A stretch of 39,178 bases of DNA from a virus. Location: the UHGV virus genome UHGV-0034768, one strand, 5' to 3'. Positions 2,261-39,168 of the stretch are shown in pieces. The notes below the pieces were generated by a model. That model was not told where the DNA came from and ran no database searches. It was given only the letters and a program-made list of their open reading frames with translations. Both the position numbers and the translations under genes were made by a program. Each line of letters opens with the position of its first letter. The stretch's first letter is position 1.

Positions 2261-4432
2261 ATGTTTGACCTTAAGAGTATCTGGGGTTCTGACATCGAGA
2301 CCAACGGTCTCCTTGATACAGTATCCCAGTTTCACTGTGGGGTCCTGATTAACGCCGAGTCGAATGAGACCCTTAAGTATGGGGTAGCTCCGATGGTCGG
2401 TATCGTCGGTGGCTTCAAAGAGTATGTTCATAAAGTGGAAGAGATTGCCGCATCTCCTGATGGCATGCTGGTATTCCACAACGGTATCAACTATGACGTA
2501 CCGGCTATCGACAAGCTGAAGCGTCTGTACTTTGGGAAACGTTTTAACTTCCCGAAACACAAGATGATTGATACCTTGGTGCTGGGCCGCTTGATGTATC
2601 CAAACATTAAGTTCTCAGACATGGGTGCTGTGAAAGCTGGTCGTCTGCCACCTCAGATGATGGGACGCCAGTCTCTTGAGGCTTGGGGCTATCGTCTTGG
2701 TGAGATGAAAGGTGAGTACAAGCACGATTACGTTGCCAAGTGCAAGGCTGAAGGTATCGAATATAAGGCTGGGGACGAATGGTTGTTCCCGTCTCAGGAG
2801 ATGCTGGACTATAACGTACAAGACGTTGTGGTCACACTGGCGTTGTTCAAGAAGTTCCTGACTGACAAGTATTACTTCCAGTCTGAACAGTTCGCTTTCG
2901 ACCAGATTTATGCTTTGCGTCTGGAACATGATGCTGCGTGGACCTGTGCAAAGATGGAACGTAACGGCTATCCGATGAACACCGAGATGGTCGAAGGCTT
3001 ATATCGTGAACTCACCGTCAAACGTGCAGAGTTGCTGGACAAGTTGCGTTCAACTTTCGGTAGCTGGTATGCACCGAAGGGAGGCAAGGAGTTCTTCAAG
3101 CACCCACGTACAGGCAAGGACCTTCCGAAGTATCCGCGAGTCGTGTATCCTAAGGTCGGTGGCATCTTTAAGAAGCCGAAGAACAAAGCTCAACGCTTAG
3201 GTCTTGAACCTTGTGAACGCGATACGCGAGACACGATGGAAGGAGCACCATTCACGCCAATAACTTACGTTGAGTTTAATCCGGGAAGCGGAGACCACTT
3301 AGCGAAAGTCCTGATGGAGCGTGGCTGGGAACCAGTGGACTTCACTGACACCGGGAAGCCTGTAGTCGATGACGAGACGTTAGAACACGTTAAGTTGCCA
3401 GACGCAGAGGCTCAGGCGTGCGTAGAGCTGGTCCGTGAGTATCTGGTAGTCCAGAAGCGCATAGGTCAAGCGGCTGAAGGTAAGAACGCATGGTTGAAAC
3501 TTGTAGGTCCAGACGGACGTATGCACGGTGCAATCAACCCATGCGGTGCAGTAACAGGACGTGCTACCCATAGTACACCAAACATGGCTCAGGTCCCGGC
3601 TAACGGTGCCCCATACGGTGAGACTTGCCGTGGTGCTTTCGGTGCAGCGTGGAACAAGAAGGACGGTAAGCCAGACCCTTGGATTCAAGTTGGTGTGGAT
3701 GCCTCAGGTCTTGAGCTTCGTTGTCTTGGGAACAGAGCGGCTCCGTTTGATGGTGGTGCCTATGCGAAGACTGTGGTCGAAGGTGATATACACTGGGCCA
3801 ATGCTGTCAACGCGGGTTTAGCACCTAACGTCCCACGCGATAAGTCGAACCACGACCATGAGGCTTTCCGTAACAACGCTAAGACGTTCATCTATGCGTT
3901 CCTGTATGGTGCAGGGGCCGCTAAGATTGGACTGATAGTCGGCGGTGGTAAGAAGGAAGGTTCGGCCTTGATGAAGAAATTCATTGAGGGTACACCAGCT
4001 ATCAAGGACCTGCGAGAGGCTGTGCAGAACACGCTCATCTCAGAGTCGAAGTGGGTAGATGGTGAGAACATCGTGAAATGGAAACGTCGCTGGCTGAAAG
4101 GTCTGGATGGTCGCCGCATTCACATCCGGTCGCCACACTCAGCACTGAACGCCTTACTTCAAGGTGATGGTGCGGTAGTCTGTAAGCACTGGATTGTTGA
4201 GACTGAGCGTATGCTCGAAGAGGCCGGGTATGTCCACGGCTGGGAAGGAGACTTTGCGTACATGGCATGGGTCCACGACGAATTGCAGATTGCAGCTCGG
4301 AACATGGAGATTGCCGAAGATATTCGCAGGATTGCTCAACTTGCTATGCGGAAGGTGGGTGAGTTCTATAACTTTAAATGTGTCCTTGATACCGAAGGTA
4401 AGATTGGACCAACGTGGAAGGAGTGTCACTAA
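2261..4432 (+). CDS. gp5: DNA polymerase (T7 gp5-like, family A, with 3'-5' exonuclease and thioredoxin-binding insert)
   Basis: Start set at MFDLKSIWGSDIETNGLL (aligns with T7 MIVSDIEANALL) with GGAGGA RBS; conserved blocks FHNGxxYDVPA, GAVTGRATH, KTFIYGFLYGAG, MAWVHDE; C-terminus ...GPTWKECH like T7. Confidence 0.95.
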   Translation: MFDLKSIWGSDIETNGLLDTVSQFHCGVLINAESNETLKYGVAPMVGIVGGFKEYVHKVEEIAASPDGMLVFHNGINYDVPAIDKLKRLYFGKRFNFPKHKMIDTLVLGRLMYPNIKFSDMGAVKAGRLPPQMMGRQSLEAWGYRLGEMKGEYKHDYVAKCKAEGIEYKAGDEWLFPSQEMLDYNVQDVVVTLALFKKFLTDKYYFQSEQFAFDQIYALRLEHDAAWTCAKMERNGYPMNTEMVEGLYRELTVKRAELLDKLRSTFGSWYAPKGGKEFFKHPRTGKDLPKYPRVVYPKVGGIFKKPKNKAQRLGLEPCERDTRDTMEGAPFTPITYVEFNPGSGDHLAKVLMERGWEPVDFTDTGKPVVDDETLEHVKLPDAEAQACVELVREYLVVQKRIGQAAEGKNAWLKLVGPDGRMHGAINPCGAVTGRATHSTPNMAQVPANGAPYGETCRGAFGAAWNKKDGKPDPWIQVGVDASGLELRCLGNRAAPFDGGAYAKTVVEGDIHWANAVNAGLAPNVPRDKSNHDHEAFRNNAKTFIYAFLYGAGAAKIGLIVGGGKKEGSALMKKFIEGTPAIKDLREAVQNTLISESKWVDGENIVKWKRRWLKGLDGRRIHIRSPHSALNALLQGDGAVVCKHWIVETERMLEEAGYVHGWEGDFAYMAWVHDELQIAARNMEIAEDIRRIAQLAMRKVGEFYNFKCVLDTEGKIGPTWKECH

Positions 4433-9956: not shown

Positions 9957-9979
9957 ACTAAACTATCACTATAGGGAGA
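9957..9979 (+). promoter_or_regulatory. phage RNAP promoter (phi10 position), ACTAAACTATCACTATAGGGAGA
   Basis: Best match to a T7-type initiation region (GGGAGA at +1..+6); +1 G at 9974; upstream of the major capsid gene. Confidence 0.9.
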
Positions 9980-24830: not shown

Positions 24831-24940
24831 ATCTCTTAAGTGTTAGACTCAAGGTCCTTACTATATGTAGGGGCCTTTATGGTTAACACTAACTAGTGGA
24901 GGCGACTCTACGTGAAATCTGATAAACCGGGAGGGCAACT

Positions 24941-25405
24941 ATGCTCGAATTTTTAAAGAGAGCGGCTCCGTGGTTACTTGCAGCAGTGATGTTTGCTGGT
25001 GGCTACCACACCGCTAACAATAAGTGGGAGGCTAAGGTCAATGCAGAATACACCTCGAATCTTAAGGCATCGGAAGATACAAGGCTTGCTGTCCAAGCTG
25101 AAGTCAACAAAGTGTCCAAGCGGTTTCAGGACGAAATGTCCTCGCTGGAAGGCAGCACTGATAGGATTATTGCTGACCTTCAGTCTGACAATAAGCGGCT
25201 GCGCATCCGAGTCAAACCTACGAGTGGAACCACGCAAAGTGACGGTCGATGCGTCATTGATGGTTACGCCGAACTTGACGAACGAGATGCTAAACGTCTT
25301 ATCGCCATCGGATTAAAAGGAGACTCGTGGATTAAGGCCCTTCAAGATACTGTTCGTAAACTTCAACAAGACCGGGGTAGCTATGGGAATTATAATAACA
25401 ACTGA
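24941..25405 (+). CDS. gp18.5: i-spanin Rz (T7 gp18.5-like)
   Basis: 154 aa; N-terminal TM segment; matches T7 gp18.5 (MLEFL, LEGSTDRII.DL.SDNKRLR.RVK, RDAKR, ALQDT.R.LQ). Confidence 0.9.
   Translation: MLEFLKRAAPWLLAAVMFAGGYHTANNKWEAKVNAEYTSNLKASEDTRLAVQAEVNKVSKRFQDEMSSLEGSTDRIIADLQSDNKRLRIRVKPTSGTTQSDGRCVIDGYAELDERDAKRLIAIGLKGDSWIKALQDTVRKLQQDRGSYGNYNNN
25041..25316 (+). CDS. gp18.7: o-spanin Rz1 (T7 gp18.7-like), embedded in the +1 frame of Rz
   Basis: Embedded ORF with basic N-region, hydrophobic stretch ALIGLLLTFSLTISG and lipobox Cys (LTISGC); ATG at 25041 is 100 nt into Rz, as in T7; start not certain. Confidence 0.6.
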   Translation: MQNTPRILRHRKIQGLLSKLKSTKCPSGFRTKCPRWKAALIGLLLTFSLTISGCASESNLRVEPRKVTVDASLMVTPNLTNEMLNVLSPSD

Positions 25406-27944: not shown

Positions 27945-28038
27945 CTGAATGAATAACTATAGGTGAAAGCTGCATGAATACGCAGTTAGTACCCTATAGT
28001 TACTACCAGTATAACCTACTGTTTTACAAGGAGTTTGG

Positions 28039-28061
28039 ACTTAACTATCACTATAGGGAAG
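28039..28061 (+). promoter_or_regulatory. phage RNAP promoter (phiOR position), ACTTAACTATCACTATAGGGAAG
   Basis: Consensus match; +1 G at 28056; downstream of terminase near the genome right end, as T7 phiOR. Confidence 0.8.
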
Positions 28062-28241
28062 ACCCCAGGTTACTTATAGTATTACTGTAGTGAATATACA
28101 TATGCAGACTTTATGCAAGACCTTAGGAGGCAGACTCCGAGTTCTTACCTAAGGCTTGCACCGATGGAAGGAGGGTGATATTAATCATAATCCCTCCAAT
28201 ACAGATAGTCACCGACCATAGATACAGGAGGTATGTAGCAT

Positions 28242-28400
28242 ATGGCAAAGACCAAAGCTGTACTTAAAGCTCTGGCGACCAATCGAGCTACATACAGGTT
28301 TCTTGCTGCTGTTCTACTTGCTGCTGGCGTTACTGCTGGAAGTCAGTGGGTCGGGTGGGTCGAGACTCTCGTATGTTCTCTGGTGTCTCAGTGTAATTAA
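28242..28400 (+). CDS. small hydrophobic protein (positional analogue of T7 gene 19.5)
   Basis: 52-aa ORF not in the supplied track (under 60 aa); strong RBS ACAGGAGG 8 nt upstream; predicted TM-like segment. Confidence 0.5.
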   Translation: MAKTKAVLKALATNRATYRFLAAVLLAAGVTAGSQWVGWVETLVCSLVSQCN

Positions 28401-28559
28401 CGCAATCATGGTAACGATTCACGAGCGGAAGACCTAAGGTCAGTACGTGGATAAAGACTCACTCTACTGACCTTAGCTACTGTAGTCAAGGACTTTAGGT
28501 AACACCTTAAGAGAAGCTCACTTAGGGTCATCCTACTTATTGGTCTATCCTAGTGTCGC

Positions 28560-28605
28560 CTGACCTACGGTCCTTGACCTACAGTGGCTGTGGCCTACAG
28601 TAGTG
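28560..28605. repeat. short direct repeats (GACCTACGG / CCTACAGT x3) to the right of the putative terminal repeat
   Basis: Read directly; analogous to the T7 CCTAAAG-type repeat arrays flanking the terminal repeat. Confidence 0.6.
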
Positions 28606-28639
28606 ACGATGAGTTTTGGACCAAAAGTTTGAGACCACA

Positions 28640-28835
28640 TCTCACAGTTCAAGAACTTCAAGTCTCCCCATAGGCCCTCTTTCAGTCCAGACCAAAGGCC
28701 CTCCCCAGTCTATCATAAGGTTGGACCTATGGTCAAGACGTTAGGTCGACGATAGGTCTAGGCTATGGCTGGAGGTCAGACGATAGGTAGGGACTATTGG
28801 TTGTCTCCGAGTCTCTATCTGTATACCATAGGTCT
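28640..28835. repeat. candidate direct terminal repeat region (single collapsed copy); probable physical left end near 28640
   Basis: TCTCACAGT...CTCCCCATAGG at 28640 and ...TGTCTCCGAGTCTCTATCTGTATACCATAGGTCTC resemble the T7 left-end terminal repeat (TCTCACAGTGTACGG...CCCCCATAGGGGG ... TGTCTCTCTGTGTCCCTATCTGTTACAGTCTCC). Confidence 0.4.
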
Positions 28836-28839
28836 CAAC

Positions 28840-28926
28840 AACCTACAGTCCTACAGCCTACAGTCTAACAACCTACAGTCACCGACCATCGGTAAAGCCA
28901 TTACCTACAGTCAAAAGACCTACAGT
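28840..28926. repeat. array of about six CCTACAGT short direct repeats
   Basis: Copies at 28842, 28850, 28857, 28872, 28904, 28919; counterpart of the T7 CCTAAAG array between the terminal repeat and promoter A1. Confidence 0.7.
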
Positions 28927-29039
28927 TAATAGACACAAAGCTATAGACTTAAGGTCTAAGACATGTTAGTCAAAGACTATATCCTCTTAGTCACTATGGG
29001 GCCGACGATAGCTTAATCGATATTATTTAAGATTACCTA

Positions 29040-29068
29040 TTGACTATAGGTCTAGACTATGGCCTAAT
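29040..29068 (+). promoter_or_regulatory. candidate host sigma70 early promoter (A1-like)
   Basis: TTGACT at 29040-29045, then a 17-nt spacer and a weak -10 (CCTAAT); collinear with T7 A1 (TTGACTTAAAGTCTAACCTATAGGATACT). Confidence 0.4.
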
Positions 29069-29180
29069 AGCTTCCGTCAACACGACACGGCAACAACCGG
29101 ATAGTGAAGACGCCGGGTCATCCCGGTTAAGTAGACAGCCTGATAAGTCATACGAACAACAGGCAGATGACAGAAAGCAG

Positions 29181-29210
29181 TTGACAAGATGTACCGACTT
29201 AAAGTAGTAT
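29181..29210 (+). promoter_or_regulatory. candidate host sigma70 early promoter (A3-like)
   Basis: TTGACA at 29181-29186, 18-nt spacer, TAGTAT at 29205-29210; flanking sequence CCGGATA.GTAGACAGCCTGATAAGTC closely matches the T7 A2/A3 region. Confidence 0.5.
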
Positions 29211-29398
29211 GTACCACATCGAAACAACAGTGATGACCAACACTGAAATGGTCTACCTGAAGTCCTCTGACTGAAGGGAATGCTCTTTAACAATCTGGAT
29301 AAAACTCTTAATGTGCGCCGATAGCGACTAACTACAGGGCCTTTGAGTATACATCTGAAGGCCCTGACTGATAGTCACTAACTTAAAGGATGGACACT

Positions 29399-29644
29399 AT
29401 GAAACACTTAAGCACAATCACTAATCGCAATGAAATATTCGTGAACACTAAAGGTTATGCGTGGATTCAGCTTAAAGAGCTGACAGGAGCGCGTCACCGT
29501 GTGGTAGTGCGCAAGGTCTCAAGCAAGCCGTTCAGCAACTACAGCGTAGATACTGTGCGTATAGACAACGAGACCTACCTGATAGACTCGCAGATAACCG
29601 TGCGTCCTACAGCGGGCGTCCCAGCTCCTTATTTCGCTAACTGA
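29399..29644 (+). CDS. hypothetical early protein (first gene after the early promoters, upstream of ocr)
   Basis: 82-aa ORF (second ATG chosen, AAAGGA 7 nt upstream); preceded by a structured leader; no recognisable domain. Confidence 0.6.
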   Translation: MKHLSTITNRNEIFVNTKGYAWIQLKELTGARHRVVVRKVSSKPFSNYSVDTVRIDNETYLIDSQITVRPTAGVPAPYFAN

Positions 29645-29732
29645 GAGTGATTAACTACAGGTCGTTAGACTCATAGCGGCCTGACTGATAGCCACTAACA
29701 TACGCACTAACAACTTTTGAGAGGATATAACT

Positions 29733-30077
29733 ATGGAACGTAACGCTAACGCATACTATGAGCTGCTGGCTGCAACCGTTGAAGCATTTAACGAGCGTAT
29801 TCAGTATGACGAAATAGCTGAAGGCGATGAGTACCACGATGCACTGCATGAGGTCGTAGACGGTCAGGTCCCGCATTATTACCACGAGATTTTCACGGTG
29901 ATGGCTGCTGATGGTATAGACCACGAGTTTGAGGACTCTGGGCTGATGCCTGAGACCAAGGACGTAACGCGTATACTGCAAGCTCGCATCTATGAGGCAT
30001 TGTATAACGACGTGTCTGATAGCTCGGATGTGGTCTGGTTTGAGGCTGAAGAGGAAGACGAAGAGGACTGCGAGTGA
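29733..30077 (+). CDS. ocr: Ocr, DNA-mimic anti-restriction protein (T7 gp0.3-like)
   Basis: 114 aa, very acidic; blocks [49 protein letters not shown] match T7 Ocr ([41 protein letters not shown]). Confidence 0.95.
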
Positions 30078-30226
30078 TAGTAACTTATGGTCTCTGCAAG
30101 CACCACGTCACCAACGCCAGGATTTTGGTCAAGACCGGGCGGTTAAACCACGATGCGGCTATGCGTCACCTGAAAGCGGTCTACGAGGACCGCAAGCGCA
30201 CCCACGACAGCTTACACGCTGAGTGA
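30074..30226 (+). CDS. possible gp0.4-like small protein (T7 gp0.4 inhibits FtsZ)
   Basis: 50-codon ORF not in the supplied track, GTG start overlapping the ocr stop; product ..TYGL....[13 protein letters not shown]....LHAE resembles recalled T7 gp0.4 (..QYGL....AMAQLKELYENNK....ESAE). Confidence 0.45.
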
Positions 30227-30292
30227 TAGACGAGAGGTCATCGACTGATAGGTGGCCTCAAAGATTATCACTTACATTGATAGGAGTTAACT

Positions 30293-30382
30293 ATGAACAT
30301 CGGTTACTGGGTATGCCTGTCTCCGGTCATCTTTCTGATAGCTTGGGGCCTTCTGGACGCAATCAAGCGAGGGTCATTCTAA
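30293..30382 (+). CDS. 29-aa hydrophobic peptide (early, gene 0.5-like position)
   Basis: MNIGYWVCLSPVIFLIAWGLLDAIKRGSF with TAGGAG RBS 7 nt upstream; short, so uncertain. Confidence 0.35.
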   Translation: MNIGYWVCLSPVIFLIAWGLLDAIKRGSF

Positions 30383-30576
30383 TGAGCTGGATACTTCTGG
30401 TCATTGGCTACGGGTTAATACTCGCAGTCATCATGAAAGACATCAACAAAGCGCGTACAGTCTACAACTTCAACTATGTGCGTCTGGGTCGCTGGACTGT
30501 ACGTCAACCTAACGGGCGATTCATGCGCAACTTAGCGAACGTCTGGGATATAGCAACTATCGGGAGTAAACTGTAA
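30382..30576 (+). CDS. 64-aa early membrane protein
   Basis: MSWILLVIGYGLILAVIM... single TM segment; TAATG overlap with the upstream peptide; the track ORF 30223-30576 is likely a 5' over-extension. Confidence 0.5.
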   Translation: MSWILLVIGYGLILAVIMKDINKARTVYNFNYVRLGRWTVRQPNGRFMRNLANVWDIATIGSKL

Positions 30577-30902
30577 TGAACAAGTCATACGGGATTAATC
30601 TGGTACACTCTATGGACGCAGAAATGAACATGTTAAGCCTACTGGCTACCGGGTATCGTCACGGAACGTCAAGTCACACCGCACGTCAACAGCAGGAGCG
30701 GGACCGTGTACTACAGGCACGACTCCAGGCAGAGGGCCATAAGGCTGAGCTGATGTGGCTGGCGTATGGTGGACGACCTATCACCGACGATGGTAAACTT
30801 CTGGTCTCAGGCTGGAAGGCGATAGACCAACGGTCAACCATCAAGCACACGACTCACGGTGACTTCAGTCATCTACACGCTAACCCATTGATATGCAAGT
30901 GA
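30576..30902 (+). CDS. hypothetical early protein (108 aa) at the position of the absent gp0.7 kinase
   Basis: ORF with ATG overlapping the upstream stop; no kinase motifs; immediately upstream of the RNAP gene. Confidence 0.6.
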   Translation: MNKSYGINLVHSMDAEMNMLSLLATGYRHGTSSHTARQQQERDRVLQARLQAEGHKAELMWLAYGGRPITDDGKLLVSGWKAIDQRSTIKHTTHGDFSHLHANPLICK

Positions 30903-30907
30903 TTCTG

Positions 30908-30930
30908 ACTTAACTATCACTATAGGACTC
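30908..30930 (+). promoter_or_regulatory. phage RNAP promoter directly upstream of the RNAP gene, ACTTAACTATCACTATAGGACTC
   Basis: Consensus match; +1 G at 30925, 74 nt upstream of the RNAP start codon. Confidence 0.75.
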
Positions 30931-30998
30931 AAGGTCTAAGACTCCAAGTGAAAGACCAAAGAGACTTAAGTGAAAGACTAATAACAAGGACTTTAAGT

Positions 30999-33680
30999 AT
31001 GAGCGTCATCTCCATTGACAAACACGACTTCTCTGATGTGTCTAACGCTATTGAGCCGTTTAACCTGCTGGCTGACCACTACGGGCAAGACCTTGCAGTC
31101 AAGCAACTTCAGCTTGAGCATGAGGCATACACTGAAGGCGAGCGACGTTTCATCAAGAACCTTGAGCGTCAGACAGAGCGCGGTGAACTGGCAGACAATC
31201 AGGTCGCCAAGCCTTTGATGCAGACTCTGGTCCCTAAGATTGCGCAAGCCGTCAAGGAGTGGCATGACGGTCCAGACGGGAAGATGTCAACATCTCGTCC
31301 TAGCGTAGCGTTCACCATGTTGAGCACTGAAGAGAAGGCCGTCAAGGACCGCTCTCTGCGCATCTCCTGTGAGTCTGCTGCGGTTATCATACTGAAGGTC
31401 ATCCTCTCCAAGCTGGTAAAGCCTGAAGGGATACCGATTACACCGATGGCCTCAGCGATAGGTCGCACACTTGAGGACGAAATCCGCTTCGGTCGCATCC
31501 GTGACAAGGAGAAGGAGCACTTCAAGAAGGCGATAGCTGAGAACCTGAACAAGCGAGCCGGGGCATCCTACAAGAAAGCCTACATGCAAGCTGTTGAGAC
31601 CTCCATGCTTGAGCAAGGTCAACTGGAAGATGCGTGGGGAACTTGGAGTCCGACCGAGGCGGTCCATGTTGGCATCAAGATGCTTGAGATTGTCATCCAG
31701 TCCACTCAACTGGTAGAGCTTAAGCGTTATGGTGCTGGCAATGCAGCGGCTGATGTTGAGATGGTCCACCTATCAGACTTCTGGGTCAAGAAGATGGCCC
31801 AACGTGGCTTCAGCCTTGCGGGTATCGCTCCAGTCTATCAACCTTGCGTAGTTCCACCTAAGCCGTGGACGGGTGTCGTAGGCGGTGGGTATTGGGCCAA
31901 AGGACGCAGACCGTTGCCACTGATTCGCTTAGGGTCTAAGTCTGCGGTAGCACGTTATGAGGACGTGTACATGCCTGAAGTCTATGACGCTGTGAACATC
32001 ATCCAGAATACACCTTGGAAAGTTAACAAGAAGGTGTTGGACGTGGTGAACATGGTCGAGAAGCTGAACAACACGCCTATTGATGATATCCCTCAGATGG
32101 AGCCACTGAAGCCTGAAGACTATGCGGGTGAGACTGAAGAGGAACTCAAGGCATGGAAGAAGGCTGCTGCTGGTATCTACCGCCGAGAGAAGGCCCGGCA
32201 GTCACGTAGATTGTCACTGAGCTTTATCGTTAACCAGGCTAACAAGTTCTCTCAGTTCAAGGCCATCTGGTTCCCGTATAACATGGACTGGCGCGGTCGC
32301 GTATACGCTGTGCCGATGTTCAACCCTCAGGGTAACGACATGCAAAAGGGTCTCCTTACTCTGGCAGTCGGTAAGCCTATTGGTGCTGATGGTTTCAAAT
32401 GGCTGAAGGTCCACGGTGCAAACTGTGCGGGTATTGATAAAGTCACCTTCGAGGAGCGCATCAAGTGGGTGGAAGACAACCACGACAACATCATGACTAC
32501 TGCTAAGGCACCGATGGACAGCATTGAGTGGTGGGGTAAGTTAGACTCTCCGTTCTGCTTCCTCGCGTTCTGCTTCGAGTATGCTGGCGTAATGCACCAC
32601 GGCCTATCTTACTCTTGCTCGCTACCGATAGCTTTCGATGGGTCCTGCTCTGGGATTCAGCACTTCAGCGCGATGCTTCGAGATCACATCGGTGGACATG
32701 CAGTAAACTTGACGCCATCCGGTAAGGTCCAAGACATCTACCGCATCGTATCCGACCGCATTGAGGAGGAACTTAAAGTCCTGCTGGTTAACGGTACGGA
32801 CAACGAGATGGTAACTCACGAGGATAAGAAAACTGGTGAGATTACCGAGCGTCTCAAGCTGGGGACACGAGAGCTGTCCCGTCAGTGGCTGACCTACGGT
32901 ATGTCACGCAAGGTTACTAAGCGTTCGGTTATGACTCTGGCCTACGGGTCGAAAGAGTACGGCTTCGCAGACCAAGTTTACGAGGACATCGTGATGCCAG
33001 CGATTGACTCAGGGTCTGGTGCCATGTTCACCGAGCCAAGCCAAGCGTCTCGTTTCATGGCTAAGATGATTTGGGAAGCTGTGAGTGTGACCGTAGTCGC
33101 TGCGGTTGACGCAATGAAGTGGCTTCAAGGTGCTGCTAAGCTGCTGGCTGCTGAAGTAAAGGACAAGAAGACAGGCGAAATACTGAAGCCTTGCCTTCCG
33201 GTACACTGGGTAACACCTGATGGTTTCCCGGTCTGGCAGGAATACCGCAAGAAGGATACAACCCGTCTGAACCTGATGTTCTTAGGGTCGTTCAACCTTC
33301 AGCCTACCGTCAACAGGGGTACGAAGAAAGAGCTGGACAAGCACAAGCAGGAGTCAGGCATTAGCCCGAACTTCGTCCACTCACAAGATGGTAGCCACCT
33401 CCGCAAGACTGTAGTCCACACGCACCGCAAGTATGGCGTAATGTCCTTCGCAGTGATTCACGATAGCTTCGGGACCATCCCGGCTGACGCTGAGTATCTG
33501 TTCCGTGGGGTCCGTGAGACTATGGTAGAGACCTACCGCGACAATGATGTGCTGCTTGACTTCTACGAGCAGTTCGAATACCAGCTTCACGAGAGCCAGC
33601 GCGACAAGTTGCCTGAGCTTCCGAAGAAAGGTAAACTGAACATAGAAGACATCTTGTCTTCAGACTTTGCATTCGCTTAA
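30999..33680 (+). CDS. gp1: DNA-directed RNA polymerase, single-subunit (T7 gp1-like)
   Basis: Start at MSVISIDKHDFSD (T7 MNTINIAKNDFSD) with AAGGA RBS; extensive identity to T7 RNAP including PWTGVVGGGYWA, FPYNMDWRGRVYAV, NCSLP.AFDGSCSGIQHFSAMLRD, HDSFGT, and C-terminal FAFA. Confidence 0.97.
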   Translation: MSVISIDKHDFSDVSNAIEPFNLLADHYGQDLAVKQLQLEHEAYTEGERRFIKNLERQTERGELADNQVAKPLMQTLVPKIAQAVKEWHDGPDGKMSTSRPSVAFTMLSTEEKAVKDRSLRISCESAAVIILKVILSKLVKPEGIPITPMASAIGRTLEDEIRFGRIRDKEKEHFKKAIAENLNKRAGASYKKAYMQAVETSMLEQGQLEDAWGTWSPTEAVHVGIKMLEIVIQSTQLVELKRYGAGNAAADVEMVHLSDFWVKKMAQRGFSLAGIAPVYQPCVVPPKPWTGVVGGGYWAKGRRPLPLIRLGSKSAVARYEDVYMPEVYDAVNIIQNTPWKVNKKVLDVVNMVEKLNNTPIDDIPQMEPLKPEDYAGETEEELKAWKKAAAGIYRREKARQSRRLSLSFIVNQANKFSQFKAIWFPYNMDWRGRVYAVPMFNPQGNDMQKGLLTLAVGKPIGADGFKWLKVHGANCAGIDKVTFEERIKWVEDNHDNIMTTAKAPMDSIEWWGKLDSPFCFLAFCFEYAGVMHHGLSYSCSLPIAFDGSCSGIQHFSAMLRDHIGGHAVNLTPSGKVQDIYRIVSDRIEEELKVLLVNGTDNEMVTHEDKKTGEITERLKLGTRELSRQWLTYGMSRKVTKRSVMTLAYGSKEYGFADQVYEDIVMPAIDSGSGAMFTEPSQASRFMAKMIWEAVSVTVVAAVDAMKWLQGAAKLLAAEVKDKKTGEILKPCLPVHWVTPDGFPVWQEYRKKDTTRLNLMFLGSFNLQPTVNRGTKKELDKHKQESGISPNFVHSQDGSHLRKTVVHTHRKYGVMSFAVIHDSFGTIPADAEYLFRGVRETMVETYRDNDVLLDFYEQFEYQLHESQRDKLPELPKKGKLNIEDILSSDFAFA

Positions 33681-33694
33681 CAGGAGAGATAGTT

Positions 33695-33895
33695 ATGAAA
33701 TTTGCACACAAGCAGACAGGAGTTAAGGGTGGGACTCAAATCGTGACCGTAACAGAACATAATGGCAAGGGTCTGGTGAAGACCACAGTCATTCCTACCG
33801 AGATGTCAAAACAGCTTAACGTCCAGTTCAAGTGGCTGGTTAAGCAGGTGGAGCAGACGCACGAGCAGGTCCTTAAAGAGGCGGCAACCAAATGA
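33695..33895 (+). CDS. hypothetical protein (66 aa)
   Basis: ORF with CAGGAGAGA RBS right after the RNAP stop; no T7 counterpart at this position. Confidence 0.55.
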   Translation: MKFAHKQTGVKGGTQIVTVTEHNGKGLVKTTVIPTEMSKQLNVQFKWLVKQVEQTHEQVLKEAATK

Positions 33896-33973
33896 CAGAC
33901 CTACAGTTACTGGCCTTGTGGCTGGGAGCACTAGCAGTACTCACTCTAATCCAACGCAGAAGAGGTTAACCAT

Positions 33974-34453
33974 ATGTTCGGTAAGTCAAAACTTAAAGCA
34001 CAAATCAAAGAGTTGAGCATGAAGGTGGCATACTTGGAGCGAGTCGTAACGGTCCGGGATAAGGACAACGAGAGGCTGAAGGTTAAACTTGCTGAATCAG
34101 AGCGTAAGCGCCTGACACCACCAGCGGCTGTAACTGTCAAGCGTATGGTAGGCATCAAGTTCAAGGCACTGTTCAACGGGCTGTACCAACCGACTGAGTT
34201 CAAGACAGGGCCTGGTAGCTGCGGGAAGAACGTTAAGCATTTCACCATATCGAAGACTGAACGCACCATTACCATCCACCAGCACCACGTAGACGGGTCT
34301 CAGAAAGACTTTGAGTACCGACTGAGCGACATCGATGGTCGCATCCAGTATGACTACGAGCGGGTTAAGGTCTATGGCGAGGAGGCAGAGCAGGAACGTA
34401 TAGTACAAGCCTTACGCAACAGACAACGATTATACCCTAAACTATCACTATAG
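33974..34453 (+). CDS. hypothetical protein (159 aa; N-terminal heptad-like helical region)
   Basis: ORF with GAAGAGG RBS; no T7 counterpart between gene 1 and gene 1.1; function unknown. Confidence 0.6.
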   Translation: MFGKSKLKAQIKELSMKVAYLERVVTVRDKDNERLKVKLAESERKRLTPPAAVTVKRMVGIKFKALFNGLYQPTEFKTGPGSCGKNVKHFTISKTERTITIHQHHVDGSQKDFEYRLSDIDGRIQYDYERVKVYGEEAEQERIVQALRNRQRLYPKLSL

Positions 34454-34458
34454 GATTA
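34436..34458 (+). promoter_or_regulatory. phage RNAP promoter (phi1.1 position), CCTAAACTATCACTATAGGATTA
   Basis: Consensus match; +1 G at 34453; overlaps the stop of the upstream ORF. Confidence 0.8.
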
Positions 34459-34529
34459 GACTCAAGGTCATGACTCAAAGTCGTGGCCTTCATGATTAAC
34501 CCTATAACCTAAACAACTGGAGCTACAAC

Positions 34530-34709
34530 ATGTATCAGAACACTATCAACTTCGAGCGCATCCGTGAACGTCAGCAGACTGAAGATTACATTCCGAAGGG
34601 CCGCAAGCTGAACAAGACAAAGCGTGGCGGTGGTGTCAAGGGTGCTTTCCGTAACGCTGAAGGTAAAGACTCTCTGGTAAATCAAGAGAAATACTTCGTA
34701 GGAGCGTAA
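34530..34709 (+). CDS. gp1.1: gp1.1-like small basic protein
   Basis: 59-aa ORF not in the supplied track; contains KGRKLNKTKR as in T7 gp1.1. Confidence 0.7.
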   Translation: MYQNTINFERIRERQQTEDYIPKGRKLNKTKRGGGVKGAFRNAEGKDSLVNQEKYFVGA

Positions 34710-34712
34710 GAC

Positions 34713-35000
34713 ATGGGCATGTTCTCAAGAGCACATAGTGGAAACCTGAACACCCTGCGTAAAGCCATCCACAACTGGCAGTCCGAGACCGACTATAACG
34801 CAGTGGTCAACACTTGGTTTGACCCAAGGATGAACAGGCACTGCGTCAGGGCGGTTATAGTCCACATTCATACACGAGAGGTCCTCATCGAGAAGGACTT
34901 CACGGAGTACCCGAATATCCACGACGAAGATGTGCAGACAGTAGCGGTTGCCACTTGGTTTAACAAACAGTTCAACGACTACACTGGTCGATTCCTTTAA
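34713..35000 (+). CDS. gp1.2: gp1.2-like protein (T7 gp1.2 inhibits host dGTP triphosphohydrolase)
   Basis: 95 aa; MG....SGNL N-terminus and HDEDV motif as in T7 gp1.2. Confidence 0.75.
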   Translation: MGMFSRAHSGNLNTLRKAIHNWQSETDYNAVVNTWFDPRMNRHCVRAVIVHIHTREVLIEKDFTEYPNIHDEDVQTVAVATWFNKQFNDYTGRFL

Positions 35001-35017
35001 TTCTGGAGACATTAACG

Positions 35018-36058
35018 ATGACAACTATCAAAACTAACCCGCACCGCGCTGTAGATTACTCTGAGTCAGGCGTTACGAAAGCACTGGCAGCAGCCGGGTC
35101 GCTGGAAGCTGAAGTGAAGTACGATGGTGTGCGCCTGAATCTCCCGGTCCTGCGTGAAGGTGAGACCTACTGGCTGAGCCGTGAGTCTAAACCTCTTCCA
35201 GCCTTGGAGTGGATGAACTCTGAGTTAGGGAATGCGTGGACCCAAGCTGACTGGCGATGGTTCCTGCGTCAAGCTGGCTACGAAGGTGTGGGCATGATGA
35301 TTGATGGCGAGGTCATGGTCAAAGGTGTGGACTTCAACACCTCCTCAGGTCTAATCAGAACGAAGTGGCTAAAGCCTAACAATGAAGAGTTCGCTGAGTG
35401 CTATCCTGGACGTGGTAAGAAGGTCCCGTTCTGGGTCGCACGGTCACGACTTCAGGTTGTGGTCTACGGTGTCATCGACATGACAACAATTGCTGACCCG
35501 AAAGCCGAAGGCCCTATACATAGCGTCACACGCCTTAAGGCCGAAGCTATCGTCCCTCTCCTCCAGAAATACTTCCCGGAAATCGACTGGGTTCTGTCTG
35601 AGTCACACACGGTCTATGACCTTGAGTCGCTCAACTCCCTGTACGAACAGAAGCGTCTGGAAGGACACGAGGGTCTGGTAGTCAAGGACCCACTGGGTAA
35701 ATATAAGCGTGGCAAGAAGTCAGGCATGTGGAAGATGAAGCCTGAGGAGACCATCGACGGGACCGTGTGTGGTCTCGTGTGGGGGACTCAGGGTAAGGCC
35801 AACGAAGGTAAGGTGATTGGCTTCGAGGTGCTGCTTGAGGATGGCATGGTGGTTAATGCTTGTGGCCTGACTGAAGAACAGAAGGCTGAGTTTACGGAAG
35901 CCTGTAACACTGATACATATATTCTCGGTGGAATCAATCCATACGAAGGCTGGCAGTGTGAAGTGCTATTCATGGAGCGGTTCCCTGATGGCTCTCTTCG
36001 TCACCCTAGCTTCAAGTGCTGGCGTGGAACGGAAGACAATCCAACCGTTAAGAGTTAA
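35018..36058 (+). CDS. gp1.3: ATP-dependent DNA ligase (T7 gp1.3-like)
   Basis: 346 aa; adenylation motif KYDGVR; blocks MVKGVDFNTSSGLIRTKW, YEQKRLEGHEGLVVKDP, KRGKKSGMWKMKPE, PDGSLRHPSF..WRGTEDNP match T7 ligase. Confidence 0.95.
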   Translation: MTTIKTNPHRAVDYSESGVTKALAAAGSLEAEVKYDGVRLNLPVLREGETYWLSRESKPLPALEWMNSELGNAWTQADWRWFLRQAGYEGVGMMIDGEVMVKGVDFNTSSGLIRTKWLKPNNEEFAECYPGRGKKVPFWVARSRLQVVVYGVIDMTTIADPKAEGPIHSVTRLKAEAIVPLLQKYFPEIDWVLSESHTVYDLESLNSLYEQKRLEGHEGLVVKDPLGKYKRGKKSGMWKMKPEETIDGTVCGLVWGTQGKANEGKVIGFEVLLEDGMVVNACGLTEEQKAEFTEACNTDTYILGGINPYEGWQCEVLFMERFPDGSLRHPSFKCWRGTEDNPTVKS

Positions 36059-36065
36059 CTAGACG

Positions 36066-36108
36066 TCAACCCAGTGGTCTTAGGACTGCTGGGTTTCTTT
36101 GCTTTGTG
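36066..36108 (+). terminator. early (TE-like) intrinsic terminator after the ligase gene
   Basis: AACCCAG...CTGGGTT 7-bp stem followed by TCTTTGCTTTG; same position as T7 TE. Confidence 0.6.
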
Positions 36109-36140: not shown

Positions 36141-36163
36141 CCTAAGCTATCACTATAGGACAA
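36141..36163 (+). promoter_or_regulatory. phage RNAP promoter (phi1.5 position), CCTAAGCTATCACTATAGGACAA
   Basis: Consensus match with G at -12; +1 G at 36158. Confidence 0.75.
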
Positions 36164-36784: not shown

Positions 36785-36862
36785 GTGGTGCCGGGAGATG
36801 TACGAGAAGACTCTCAACCCGGACTACATTACGTTATACAACCAATGGAAGGAGCGCGGTTT

Positions 36863-37021
36863 ATGACTGAGGTTGAGAAGAAATACATCGTGGAGCTTGA
36901 GGGTCGCGTTCAGTCCTTCGAGGTTCCGGTGTACGCAAAGTCTCTTGAAGAGGCTACCCTGAAGTCCCAAGAGTATGAGGACGCTGGGTTCGTGGTCGGA
37001 CGGATTCGTCCTGAGACCTAA
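36863..37021 (+). CDS. gp2: gp2-like inhibitor of host RNA polymerase
   Basis: 52 aa; [15 protein letters not shown]....YEDAGF.VGRIRP resembles T7 gp2 HSFEVPIYAETLDEA...YVPAGFEVTRVRP; RBS GGAAGGAG. Confidence 0.8.
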
Positions 37022-37078: not shown

Positions 37079-37777
37079 ATGGCTAAAGAGCAACTGAAGA
37101 CTTTCACCACTCCGGTAGCTGGTATCGTTGAGCCTTACGCATGGCTGAACAAAGCAGACACCAAGTTCAACGAGCGTGGTGAACACAAAGTCAACCTGAC
37201 ATTTGACCTGAGCAACCCGAAGGTCCGTAAGATGATTGATGTCTTACAGAAGATTCACGACGATGCGTATGCGAAAGCACTCGCAGACCACGAGAAGAAC
37301 CCACCTCAGGTTCAGCGTGGCAAGAAGCCTATTGAACCACGAGAAGGCGACATGCCGTGGATTGAGAATGGTGACGGTACTGTTACCCTGAAGTTTAAAT
37401 GCTTTGCGTCTTACCTGAAGGATGGTAAGTCAGAGCCTATCGTATTACGGTTCTACGACACCGATGCTAAGTTAATCCGTGACGTCCCGAATATTGGCGC
37501 TGGCTCAAAACTGAAGGTCAAGTTTAAAGTCCTGCCGTTCAAGTGGAACGCTGCTACTGGTGCAAGCGTTAAGCTCCAGCTTGAGTCCTGCCTTCTGGTA
37601 GAACTGAAGGAGTGGAAAGGTGATGGTGCTGGTGGCGATGGTGGCTGGGGTGATGATGAAGACCTCGGTACTGGCTACAAAGCGTCAACCGATGGTGACT
37701 TCGGGTCTGATGACTTCGGTGACGATGATTCCGAAGGTGGTGACGACTCAAGCTCTGGTGGCGATTACGACTTCTAA
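37079..37777 (+). CDS. gp2.5: single-stranded DNA-binding protein (T7 gp2.5-like)
   Basis: 232 aa; blocks GKKP..P.EGDMP, NGDGT.T.KFKC.AS, GSKLKVK, GASVKLQLES..LVEL; acidic tail ending ...GDYDF. Confidence 0.95.
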   Translation: MAKEQLKTFTTPVAGIVEPYAWLNKADTKFNERGEHKVNLTFDLSNPKVRKMIDVLQKIHDDAYAKALADHEKNPPQVQRGKKPIEPREGDMPWIENGDGTVTLKFKCFASYLKDGKSEPIVLRFYDTDAKLIRDVPNIGAGSKLKVKFKVLPFKWNAATGASVKLQLESCLLVELKEWKGDGAGGDGGWGDDEDLGTGYKASTDGDFGSDDFGDDDSEGGDDSSSGGDYDF

Positions 37778-38229
37778 TGGCCCAATGGTCTGCAAAACGG
37801 GGGCACTCTGTGGGTGCCTACCGCTCTGGACTTGAAGCCAAGAACCAGCAGTGGCTGGAACAGAACGGCGTCAAAGCGGAGTACGAAAGCCATTATATCA
37901 ACTATGTGATTCCGGCTTCCGACCACAAGTACACACCAGACTTTATACTTCCTAACGGTATCATCGTGGAGACCAAAGGTATCTTCGATAGTGATGACCG
38001 TAAGAAGCACCTTCTGGTACGAGAACAGCACCCAGAGTTAGACATCCGGTTCGTGTTCTCAAGTTCCCGCTCCAAGTTATACAAAGGGTCTCCGACCACG
38101 TATGGCTCATGGTGCGAAAAGAACGGCTTTAAGTTTGCAGATAAGTTTATCCCGGTTGAGTGGCTGAAAGAGGTGACTATACGTCTGCCTTCAGGCATAC
38201 TCATTCCCAAGAAGAAAGGAGTTAAGTGA
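37777..38229 (+). CDS. gp3: endonuclease I, Holliday junction resolvase (T7 gp3-like)
   Basis: 150 aa; YVIPAS.H.YTPDF.LPNGI.VETKG....DDRKKHLL.REQHPELDIR.VFSSSR.KLYKGSPT.YG matches T7 endonuclease I. Confidence 0.95.
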   Translation: MAQWSAKRGHSVGAYRSGLEAKNQQWLEQNGVKAEYESHYINYVIPASDHKYTPDFILPNGIIVETKGIFDSDDRKKHLLVREQHPELDIRFVFSSSRSKLYKGSPTTYGSWCEKNGFKFADKFIPVEWLKEVTIRLPSGILIPKKKGVK

Positions 38230-38720
38230 TGAGCAAGAAGTTTAAACTGTTAGTAGATGCGTATGGCTGGCCTAGTGGGACTATAGTTACCAAGTGTGAG
38301 AAGGACCCAGCACCAGATTCAAGAATGACCCTAGTTGAGTGTCAGACTCCTGGAGCATACAAACATGGGTCTAACGGCTACAATACTCAGCCTGAGGGTA
38401 TGTGGGGAGCATGGGTCCTTAATCACAAACTTCAGGAAATCAAGCAAGAAGAGAAACTCACTGGTGCACAGACCACTCAGGTCCTACCAGCTTCTAGCGT
38501 ACCTCCTGTGACAGTGAAACGCGAAGTCCTGACAATCGACAAGATTGGTGTAGGCCAGACGTTCATCGTCCATGGAAAGCCTGAAGAAGTTTACGTGAAG
38601 ATTAGCAACTCACACGTCTTCAACCATAAGCTGCTTCAGATGCACACTACGGACGCACAACGCTTCACCCAGCACCTGAATCTAGTGGTCGTAGAATTGG
38701 TGGTGTACAATGGTAAGTAA
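38226..38720 (+). CDS. hypothetical protein (164 aa) inserted between endonuclease I and lysozyme
   Basis: ORF overlapping both neighbours by a few nt (operon-embedded); no counterpart in T7 where genes 3 and 3.5 abut; function unknown. Confidence 0.65.
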   Translation: MMSKKFKLLVDAYGWPSGTIVTKCEKDPAPDSRMTLVECQTPGAYKHGSNGYNTQPEGMWGAWVLNHKLQEIKQEEKLTGAQTTQVLPASSVPPVTVKREVLTIDKIGVGQTFIVHGKPEEVYVKISNSHVFNHKLLQMHTTDAQRFTQHLNLVVVELVVYNGK

Positions 38721-39168
38721 GGTACAGTTCAACCCACGGTCCAGGACTGACGCTATCTTCGTTCACTGTTCGGCTACCAAGCCAGATATGGACATCGGGG
38801 TAGAGACCATCCGTATGTGGCACAAGCAGCAAGGCTGGCTGGACGTAGGCTATCACTTTATCATCAAACGTGATGGTACTGTGGAAGAGGGTCGCCCGGT
38901 CAATGTAGTAGGGTCACACGTTAAGGACTGGAACTCCAAGTCCGTAGGCGTCTGCCTTGTAGGTGGAATCAACGCTAAGGGTCAGTTTGAAGCTAACTTC
39001 ACTCCAGCCCAGATGAACTCCCTGCGCAACAAGCTGGCTGACCTGAAGGTCCTGTATCCTCAGGCAGAAATCAAAGCACACCATGACGTAGCACCGAAGG
39101 CGTGTCCAAGTTTTGACTTGCAACGTTGGCTATCTACCAACGAACTGGTCACTTCCGACCGTGGTTAA
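38710..39168 (+). CDS. gp3.5: lysozyme, N-acetylmuramoyl-L-alanine amidase (T7 gp3.5-like; the T7 protein also inhibits its RNAP)
   Basis: 152 aa; TDAIFVHCSATKP, WLDVGYHFIIKRDGTVE.GR, SIGVCLVGGI, ANFTPAQM.SLR, AHH.VAPKACPSFDL.RW...NELVTSDRG nearly identical to T7 lysozyme. Confidence 0.97.
   Translation: MVSKVQFNPRSRTDAIFVHCSATKPDMDIGVETIRMWHKQQGWLDVGYHFIIKRDGTVEEGRPVNVVGSHVKDWNSKSVGVCLVGGINAKGQFEANFTPAQMNSLRNKLADLKVLYPQAEIKAHHDVAPKACPSFDLQRWLSTNELVTSDRG

Follow-up and report, generated by a model that had tools for sequence, protein, structure and literature searches.

Does a phage of the T7 group transcribe the gene for its own RNA polymerase from a promoter which that same polymerase reads? 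The question is raised by the viral genome UHGV-0034768, a stretch of 39,178 nucleotides (the window), in which a phage-type promoter lies immediately upstream of gene 1, the gene for a single-subunit phage RNA polymerase (RNAP). We consider it likely, at a probability of roughly 0.7, that this element works as a promoter for the phage's own RNAP and that, standing directly before the RNAP gene, it places that gene under positive autoregulation. A sequence-only reading of the same DNA had raised such autoregulation as a possibility. The promoter match, the lack of a terminator and the conservation in relatives all speak for that proposal, and autoregulation itself is what we infer from them. 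The locus consists of these parts:

30908-30930, + strand: phage RNAP promoter, positions -17 to +6, ACTTAACTATCACTATAGGACTC, an exact match to the genome's own consensus
30925-30998, + strand: predicted leader of the gene 1 transcript made by phage RNAP, 74 nt, starting GGACUCAAGGUC
30986-30990, + strand: Shine-Dalgarno sequence AAGGA of gene 1, 8 nt before the ATG
30999-33680, + strand: gene 1, single-subunit phage RNA polymerase, 893 aa (PHROG 414, E = 0)

Numbered as in T7, the promoter has its +1 at G30925. It is one copy of a repeated element of about 23 bp (-17 to +6) whose consensus in this genome is CT[A/T]AACTATCACTATAGG[A/G], with the core CACTATAGG. The 18-mer TTAACTATCACTATAGGA is matched with no more than three mismatches at ten places in the window, all on the + strand, where 0.03 would be expected by chance, and the sole copy with zero mismatches is the one before gene 1, at 30910-30927. 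Scored by position weight matrix (PWM), the gene 1 promoter reaches 34.8 bits, or 33.5 bits by leave-one-out scoring, against 32.8-36.9 bits for the other nine. The earlier description of a full-consensus phage promoter with its +1 at 30925, 74 nt before the RNAP start codon at 30999, is borne out on both counts. A PWM scan of the window returned ten sites at 33-37 bits and one at 25.8 bits, with everything else below 16 bits. The 25.8-bit site is an eleventh, weaker variant (CCTAAACTATCACCTTAGGGA, 226-246, +1 at 243) just 5' of a primase/helicase-sized open reading frame (ORF) at 299-1999.

The gene 1 promoter is intergenic and on the gene-sense strand, beginning 5 nt past the preceding ORF's stop codon, and the Shine-Dalgarno region that follows it, AAGGACTTTAAGTATG, is invariant across all K1F-like loci (the relatives described below). 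Its start, GGAC, is class II-like and the same as in the neighboring middle promoters at 36158 and 37034; the promoter of the capsid gene (+1 at 9974) differs, with GGGAGA. No terminator-like site was found on the + strand from 30925 to 36068, where the first strong one lies, and the next phage promoter downstream of 30925 is 3.5 kb away, at 34453. A working promoter before gene 1, with no terminator intervening, would therefore mean positive autoregulation of the RNAP gene. The element is very probably functional as a phage RNAP promoter. According to PMC11880802, a T7 RNAP with a grafted K1F loop has been used with K1F-type promoters.

Comparison with related genomes, which the sequence-only reading had named as a check, places the promoter at the same position in all of about 30 K1F-like loci (16 distinct leader sequences), with none lacking it and with the end of the motif 72-78 nt before the ATG. 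The set, drawn from GenBank and IMG/VR, comprises K1F, EcoDS1, SH3, LET1, Pisces, Klebsiella phi1_146013, MII_004 and about 25 IMG/VR contigs; in a phage database, 221 records align across this stretch. Promoter specificity takes three forms, AACTATCAC in K1F types, AACCCTCAC in Enterobacter phage MII_004 and GAAGGTACAC in Citrobacter phage CR8, and each of the three goes with a different RNAP specificity loop. All 11 of the 11 phage promoters of MII_004 read T[T/A]AAACCCTCACTATAGG (AACCCTCACTATAGG), the gene 1 copy being exact to type, and the MII_004 loop, TRLDLMFLGTFRLQ, has a T3-like Asp (D) and a T7/T3-like Arg (R) when compared with the loop of the window and K1F, TRLNLMFLGSFNLQ (aligned to T7 residues 739-770). 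The loop positions of that Asp and Arg read promoter positions -11 to -9 in T7, as RNAP structure and genetics have established. Every promoter of CR8 (Caroctavirus, RNAP 79% identical) reads GGAAGGTACACTATAGG, including one 82 nt before gene 1, and the CR8 loop is very different. The site changes with each change of polymerase specificity and would therefore be in use as a promoter; the pattern strongly indicates that selection keeps it as one. As a separate matter, most genes in the MII_004 record (vB_Ecl_MII_004, PQ039555; our loci L007/L096) are fragmented, the RNAP into three coding sequences and the DNA polymerase into six, while its promoters are intact, which suggests uncorrected indel sequencing errors.

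The arrangement is confined to one group. In a survey of 80 Studiervirinae loci from IMG/VR, with the promoter motif derived locus by locus, only the K1F-like group had a promoter within 100 nt of gene 1. No phage promoter was found within 600 nt 5' of gene 1 in the 61 more distant loci (RNAP 58-64% identical), the nearest usually lying 2-3.5 kb away; the motif was recovered in most of these 61 and failed in five (L125, L131, L138, L143 and L163). The motif finder failed on some loci in which a terminal tandem repeat dominated, and K1F-like loci among its failures were checked by leader extraction. For the distant loci, the motif was cross-checked on T7, T3, K11, BA14, PP74 and Ninurta.

These comparisons also correct the contrast with T7 from which the sequence-only reading had started, namely that the first phage promoter of T7 lies downstream of gene 1 and that gene 1 is transcribed only by the host enzyme from the A promoters. 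In fact T7 has phiOL upstream of gene 1 and promoter C directly before it. In the records of T7, T3, K11 and BA14, phiOL is annotated beside the terminal repeat, where it precedes the host promoters as well as gene 1, and in both T7 and T3 the minor Escherichia coli promoter C directly precedes gene 1, where the T3 record also annotates the RNase III site R1. The first phage promoter downstream, in T7-, T3- and K11-like genomes, sits right after gene 1. A phage promoter upstream of gene 1 is therefore common to these phages and the window, but theirs is 2-3.5 kb upstream, by the terminal repeat and before the host promoters, and the window has none there: the PWM scan found no phiOL between the left end of the phage genome at 28640 and 30925, and no site above 7 bits from 28057 to 30907. 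The gene 1 promoter is itself 2.29 kb from the left end, past the early genes, and is not of the phiOL type, whose place is after the terminal repeat and ahead of the host early promoters.

The slot between the last early gene and gene 1 exists in T7 and T3 as well, and what fills it there (promoter C and R1) has in common with the window a 2/3-nt internal loop, predicted in the case of the window, and a CAAGGUC motif. It differs in being a host sigma-70 promoter with a full-consensus RNase III hairpin, whereas the window has a phage-type promoter and a predicted hairpin that is degenerate in its 3' half. No sigma-70-like host promoter was found in the window at the position of T7 promoter C. 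In this clade a phage promoter seems to have replaced promoter C, and on the genomes compared, the combination of a phage promoter immediately before gene 1 with no phiOL is clade-specific.

The match to consensus, the conservation of position, the co-variation with RNAP specificity, the absence of an intervening terminator, and the presence of gp2 and gp3.5 homologues are observations, and the following scheme would accommodate them. Host RNAP entering from the left-end early promoters would read through gene 1 as far as the terminator at 36068-36095 and so provide the first gene 1 mRNA. Newly made phage RNAP would initiate at G30925, and its transcript would run from a 74-nt leader through gene 1 into the genes downstream. 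RNAP synthesis would then be self-reinforcing and, after shut-off by the gp2 homologue, independent of host RNAP. As the lysozyme homologue of gp3.5 accumulates, it would probably damp the feedback, by analogy with T7 class II promoters. The promoter would also overlap a degenerate R1-type RNase III hairpin, to whose arms an 11-nt repeat would contribute. Initiation in vivo, the size of the feedback, the damping by lysozyme and the cleavage by RNase III are steps that we infer. The features on which the scheme draws are these:

29181-29210, + strand: best sigma-70-like site of the early region, TTGACA-18-TAGTAT, a consensus match only
36068-36095, + strand: strong terminator-like hairpin, 12-bp stem and T-run, directly 3' of the ligase gene
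36785-37021: gp2-like host-RNAP inhibitor
38710-39168: Amidase_2 (T7-lysozyme family) gene, gp3.5 homologue

By its consensus match, the site at 29181-29210 is a candidate host promoter for the first gene 1 mRNA; the EcoDS1 record annotates three host RNAP promoters in the stretch homologous to the early region of the window. The hairpin at 36068-36095 corresponds in position to TE, the early terminator of T7.

Several considerations weigh against autoregulation. We found in the literature neither transcript mapping or transcriptome data nor in vitro data for K1F-like phages. T7-type phages do without a promoter directly before gene 1, so the benefit of the feedback is not self-evident. In the Pisces/LET1 subgroup, the gene 1 promoter carries a T-to-A change at -2 (TAAAGG, against TATAGG in the subgroup's own consensus), and this could be a deliberately weakened site.

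An alternative that we regard as possible, though unlikely, keeps the promoter active and gives it another selected role. As the first middle (class II) promoter of the clade and a substitute for phiOL, it would hand transcription, together with transcription-coupled DNA entry, over to the fast phage RNAP from gene 1 onward, covering genes 1.1-1.3 and beyond after host RNAP is shut off, with the additional gene 1 mRNA as a by-product. The lack of any phiOL by PWM from 28640 to 30925, where T7, T3, K11 and BA14 have one, fits this role, as do the 3.5 kb that separate the site from the next phage promoter and the GGAC start shared with the class II promoters nearby. A site after gene 1, such as T7 phi1.1A or T3 phi1.05, would serve that role equally well, however, and strict retention 5' of gene 1 over three changes of specificity suggests that transcription of gene 1 matters. 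The two roles are compatible and not mutually exclusive.

Whether the conserved element acts as RNA as well as DNA depends on the leader. The repeat and the predicted fold are as follows:

30914-30976, + strand: predicted R1-like hairpin in the read-through RNA, dG -18.3 kcal/mol, with z -2.47 for this window as picked by hand after inspection
30946-30959, + strand: direct repeat copy 1, AAGTGAAAGACCAA, lying in the apical part and on the 3' side of the upper stem of the predicted hairpin
30968-30981, + strand: direct repeat copy 2, AAGTGAAAGACTAA, whose AAGUGA is predicted to pair with promoter positions -8 to -4 (UCACU)

An 11-bp direct repeat in the leader had been described with copies at 30944 and 30968. 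The repeat and its second copy stand; the first copy begins 2 nt further on, at 30946. The window has two exact copies of the 11-nt sequence AAGTGAAAGAC and no more, at 30946-30956 and 30968-30978, and the repeat grows to 14 nt if one mismatch is allowed (30946-30959 and 30968-30981). When the leader was dinucleotide-shuffled 2000 times, an exact local direct repeat of at least 11 nt appeared 3 times, and of 1057 74-nt windows across the genome 4 held one; on these figures, the repeat is more than chance. One of those four genomic windows is at about 32524-32597, inside gene 1. A by-eye reading of the leader as a degenerate array of units of about 13 nt, GACTNNAAGTGAAA, was dropped, Tandem Repeats Finder giving nothing at score 30.

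In the predicted hairpin, the 5' arm holds promoter positions -11 to +12 and the 3' arm holds the second repeat copy, the lower stem being formed by promoter positions -11 to +2 paired with that copy. About 20 pairs and an asymmetric 2-nt/3-nt internal loop, with the geometry of R1 in T7, BA14 and T3, are predicted only when the promoter is included, and a transcript beginning at +1 would retain just a stub of -9 kcal/mol. Local hairpin z values are -2.5 to -3.2 in groups A and B. The hairpin ends 22 nt before the ATG; R1 of T3 is annotated 20 nt before gene 1. The start of the leader, GGACUCAAGGUC, is the 5' half of the T7/T3 RNase III-site consensus, and GACTCAAGGTC at 30926-30936 matches that 5' half, ACUCAAGGUC, exactly.

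The same motif recurs elsewhere in the genome. With up to two mismatches, GACTCAAGGTC is matched 53 times in the window against 14.7 expected, and exact intergenic copies on the + strand at 2203, 24846 and 34459 head canonical hairpins of the T7/T3 RNase III type (GACUCAAGGUC ... GGCCUUUAUGAUUA). These lie at 2194-2246 (before the DNA polymerase gene), 24838-24892 (before the ORF at 24941) and 34449-34512 (just after the promoter at 34438), and over ACUCAAGGUC ... GGCCUUUAUGAUUA they are a near base-for-base match to annotated RNase III sites of T3. At T3 phi1.1/R1.1 and phi1.3/R1.3, and at the 34438 promoter of the window, the +1 region of a promoter runs into an RNase III-type hairpin and then a gene, as it would before gene 1. 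Those hairpins have the full consensus and lie almost wholly downstream of +1, whereas the lower stem of the gene 1 hairpin needs sequence upstream of +1.

The part of our scheme that involves RNase III meets its own difficulties. In place of the 3'-half consensus GGCCUUUAUGAUUA, with its upper stem of 9-11 bp, the leader reads AGACCAAAGAGACUU, and the upper stem is just 5 bp (GGUCU/AGACC) with 3 weak pairs. RNAalifold, run on 14 distinct leaders, gave a weak consensus of -4.9 kcal/mol with 0 compensatory pairs, and complementarity between promoter core and leader in the window is at background (-7.6 vs -6.6 +/- 2.2 kcal/mol). The ACCCT-type phages show no compensating change in the 3' arm of the hairpin, and an Rfam scan of 28000-34600 at E <= 1 returned no family match. 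Because covariation, an Rfam match and compensation in the ACCCT-type phages are all lacking and complementarity is at background, we grade the predicted R1-like hairpin as plausible, and as unproven. Folds of the whole leader were no more stable than those of shuffled sequences (phage transcript, z 0.32; read-through RNA of 171 nt, z -0.09). The predicted accessibility of the ribosome-binding site showed no consistent difference between read-through and phage-initiated mRNA in seven phages (0.43-0.68 vs 0.44-0.56), and the idea of a translational switch is accordingly unsupported.

Relatives in the Pisces/LET1 subgroup have a leader 6 nt longer, in which the promoter core is repeated in inverted form, perfectly over 11 bp (TATCACTAAAG / CTTTAGTGATA), with the arms at 3266-3276 and 3320-3330 in Pisces (L005); the same is seen in LET1, Klebsiella phi1_146013 and six IMG/VR loci. 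We think it improbable, if conceivable, that the promoter core was built deliberately into the 5' arm of an R1-type hairpin, in which case host-made gene 1 mRNA would carry the full hairpin and phage-made mRNA the stub, and the difference in processing or stabilization (by RNase III, for example) would act as the switch or limiter of a natural autogene. The inverted repeat and the -2 change in Pisces/LET1 would fit such a device, as would the phiOR region of the window, where a promoter is likewise paired with an inverted core.

A further alternative, very unlikely, is that the conserved unit is the RNA hairpin itself, an R1-type site for RNase III processing or stability in the early transcript made by the host, with a promoter-like sequence, weak or silent, as one of its arms. 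The position is that of R1 in T3 and T7, the leader opens with the GACUCAAGGUC consensus of the three canonical hairpins, and the local z values and the Pisces inverted repeat could both be read this way. A hairpin arm, however, would not require the full promoter consensus from -17 to +3, nor would its change to ACCCT or GAAGGTA have to coincide with the change of the RNAP loop while the 3' arm stays uncompensated; the absence of covariation and the background level of promoter-leader complementarity tell against it too.

The window contains a second site that resembles the gene 1 promoter region. At its phiOR-like right-end promoter (+1 at 28056), the sequence at 28012-28057 is 83% identical over about 46 nt to the gene 1 promoter and the sequence before it, and both regions have the CTTAAC variant. 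Downstream of the phiOR-like promoter, at about 28082-28090, part of the promoter core recurs in inverted orientation, CTGTAGTGA (region 28012-28093; duplex -12.4 kcal/mol). From this resemblance, the two regions may be duplicated cassettes. A role for the gene 1 promoter in DNA replication or packaging in place of gene expression, of the kind suggested for T7 phiOL, phiOR and phi1.1A/B, is nevertheless very unlikely, for although the identity, the CTTAAC variant and the downstream inverted core copy in both places suggest a duplicated end-promoter cassette, no AT-rich origin-like stretch or other replication signature adjoins the promoter, and a ribosome-binding site and gene 1 follow it directly.

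The surroundings of the locus identify the phage. For 29000-34000, megablast matches K1F-like coliphages (Kayfunavirus, T7 group) at 91-93% identity with the entire query covered, and alignment of the left ends of K1F and EcoDS1 puts base 1 of the phage genome at position 28640. With the left end mapped there, the window is, by this alignment, a complete K1F-like (Kayfunavirus) genome of the T7 group, circularly permuted. The product of gene 1 is 98.7% identical to K1F gp1 and 63% identical to T7 gp1, and the start codon at 30999-31001 agrees with the annotation of an 893-aa gp1 in K1F and EcoDS1. Two small early genes lie between ocr and gene 1. Some 200-300 nt in from the left end, at 28836-28934, lie 15-nt tandem repeats (CAACAACCTACAGTC three times and a related pair), a feature that relatives have too. 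The remaining genes mapped near the locus are:

29733-30077: ocr
30576-30902, + strand: gp0.38-like early gene, function unassigned, stop codon 5 nt before promoter position -17
34713-35000: dGTPase inhibitor
35018-36058: ligase
37079-37777: SSB (gp2.5)
37777-38229: endonuclease (gp3)

An ORF of 910 aa that starts from GTG at 30948, in frame with gene 1, was rejected as an artefact; the same frame in K1F ends after 8 codons. Where every other group A phage has CTTTAAGTG in the T-run of the leader, the window reads CTTAAGTG, a 1-nt deletion specific to this genome, and the GTG is therefore in frame with gene 1 by accident.

How much of this was known already? The sequence-only reading implied that the element was new, and in this it was mistaken: independent annotators have marked the homologous site in the records of EcoDS1 and CR8, and in a Kayfunavirus paper of 2026 the 3' end of the gene preceding the RNAP gene is listed with a promoter repeat (PMC13298934). 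The EcoDS1 record (EU734172) has it as 'promoter, phi' at 2244-2266, with gene 1 at 2336. K1F (DQ111067) has the site at about 2474-2496, unannotated in both K1F records. The promoters of EcoDS1 and K1F are identical to that of the window and equally distant from gene 1, with leaders that differ by 1-2 nt; the T-run deletion is found in the window alone. The CR8 record has a 'predicted promoter' at 3356-3378, likewise about 80 nt before gene 1; a gp0.38-like gene precedes it, and GACTTTAAGT-type motifs abound in the leader that comes next. CR8 differs from the window in promoter specificity (GGAAGGTACACTATAGG), in the RNAP loop and in details of the leader hairpin.

Circuits of this kind have been described outside the clade as well. 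Dubendorff and Studier reportedly engineered a T7 'autogene' in 1991, with T7 gene 1 under a T7 promoter and control by lac repressor and lysozyme. Its logic equals that proposed here, an RNAP gene under its cognate promoter; the engineered version is notoriously hard to maintain, whereas the arrangement in the window is natural and in a lytic genome. In Pseudomonas phage LUZ100, promoter phi1 has a mapped transcription start site directly upstream of the RNAP gene, and an explicit positive-feedback model has been published (PMC10134795). The arrangement is the same, a phage-specific promoter directly before the phage RNAP gene, but LUZ100 is a distant relative with temperate features, for which repression by a MarR-like protein is proposed, and the window shows no such regulator. 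For Vibrio phage phiA318, promoter phi-A8 was predicted upstream of the RNAP gene and autoregulation suggested (PMC4099482); phi-A8, unlike the promoter in the window, precedes a kinase gene as well as the RNAP gene, and it is predicted only. On the sequence comparisons made here, then, the element is real, probably autoregulatory, and already known, being annotated in EcoDS1 and CR8, with the concept published for other phages. No new question is opened by it. This analysis adds the three-way co-variation argument, the boundary of the clade, and the overlap with a degenerate R1-type hairpin.

The results have uses in annotating K1F-like therapeutic phages, in modeling the timing of expression in the T7 group, and in borrowing orthogonal pairs of RNAP and promoter. 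If active, the promoter would give a strictly lytic phage of the T7 group a naturally occurring RNA polymerase circuit that amplifies itself. The same design, the T7 'autogene', proved unstable and toxic in engineers' hands. Because the promoter has been kept over three changes of specificity, the evidence argues that feedback, or at least transcription of gene 1 by phage RNAP, is under selection in the Kayfunavirus/Caroctavirus clade; phages of the T7, T3 and K11 types have a different solution, phiOL together with the host promoter C.

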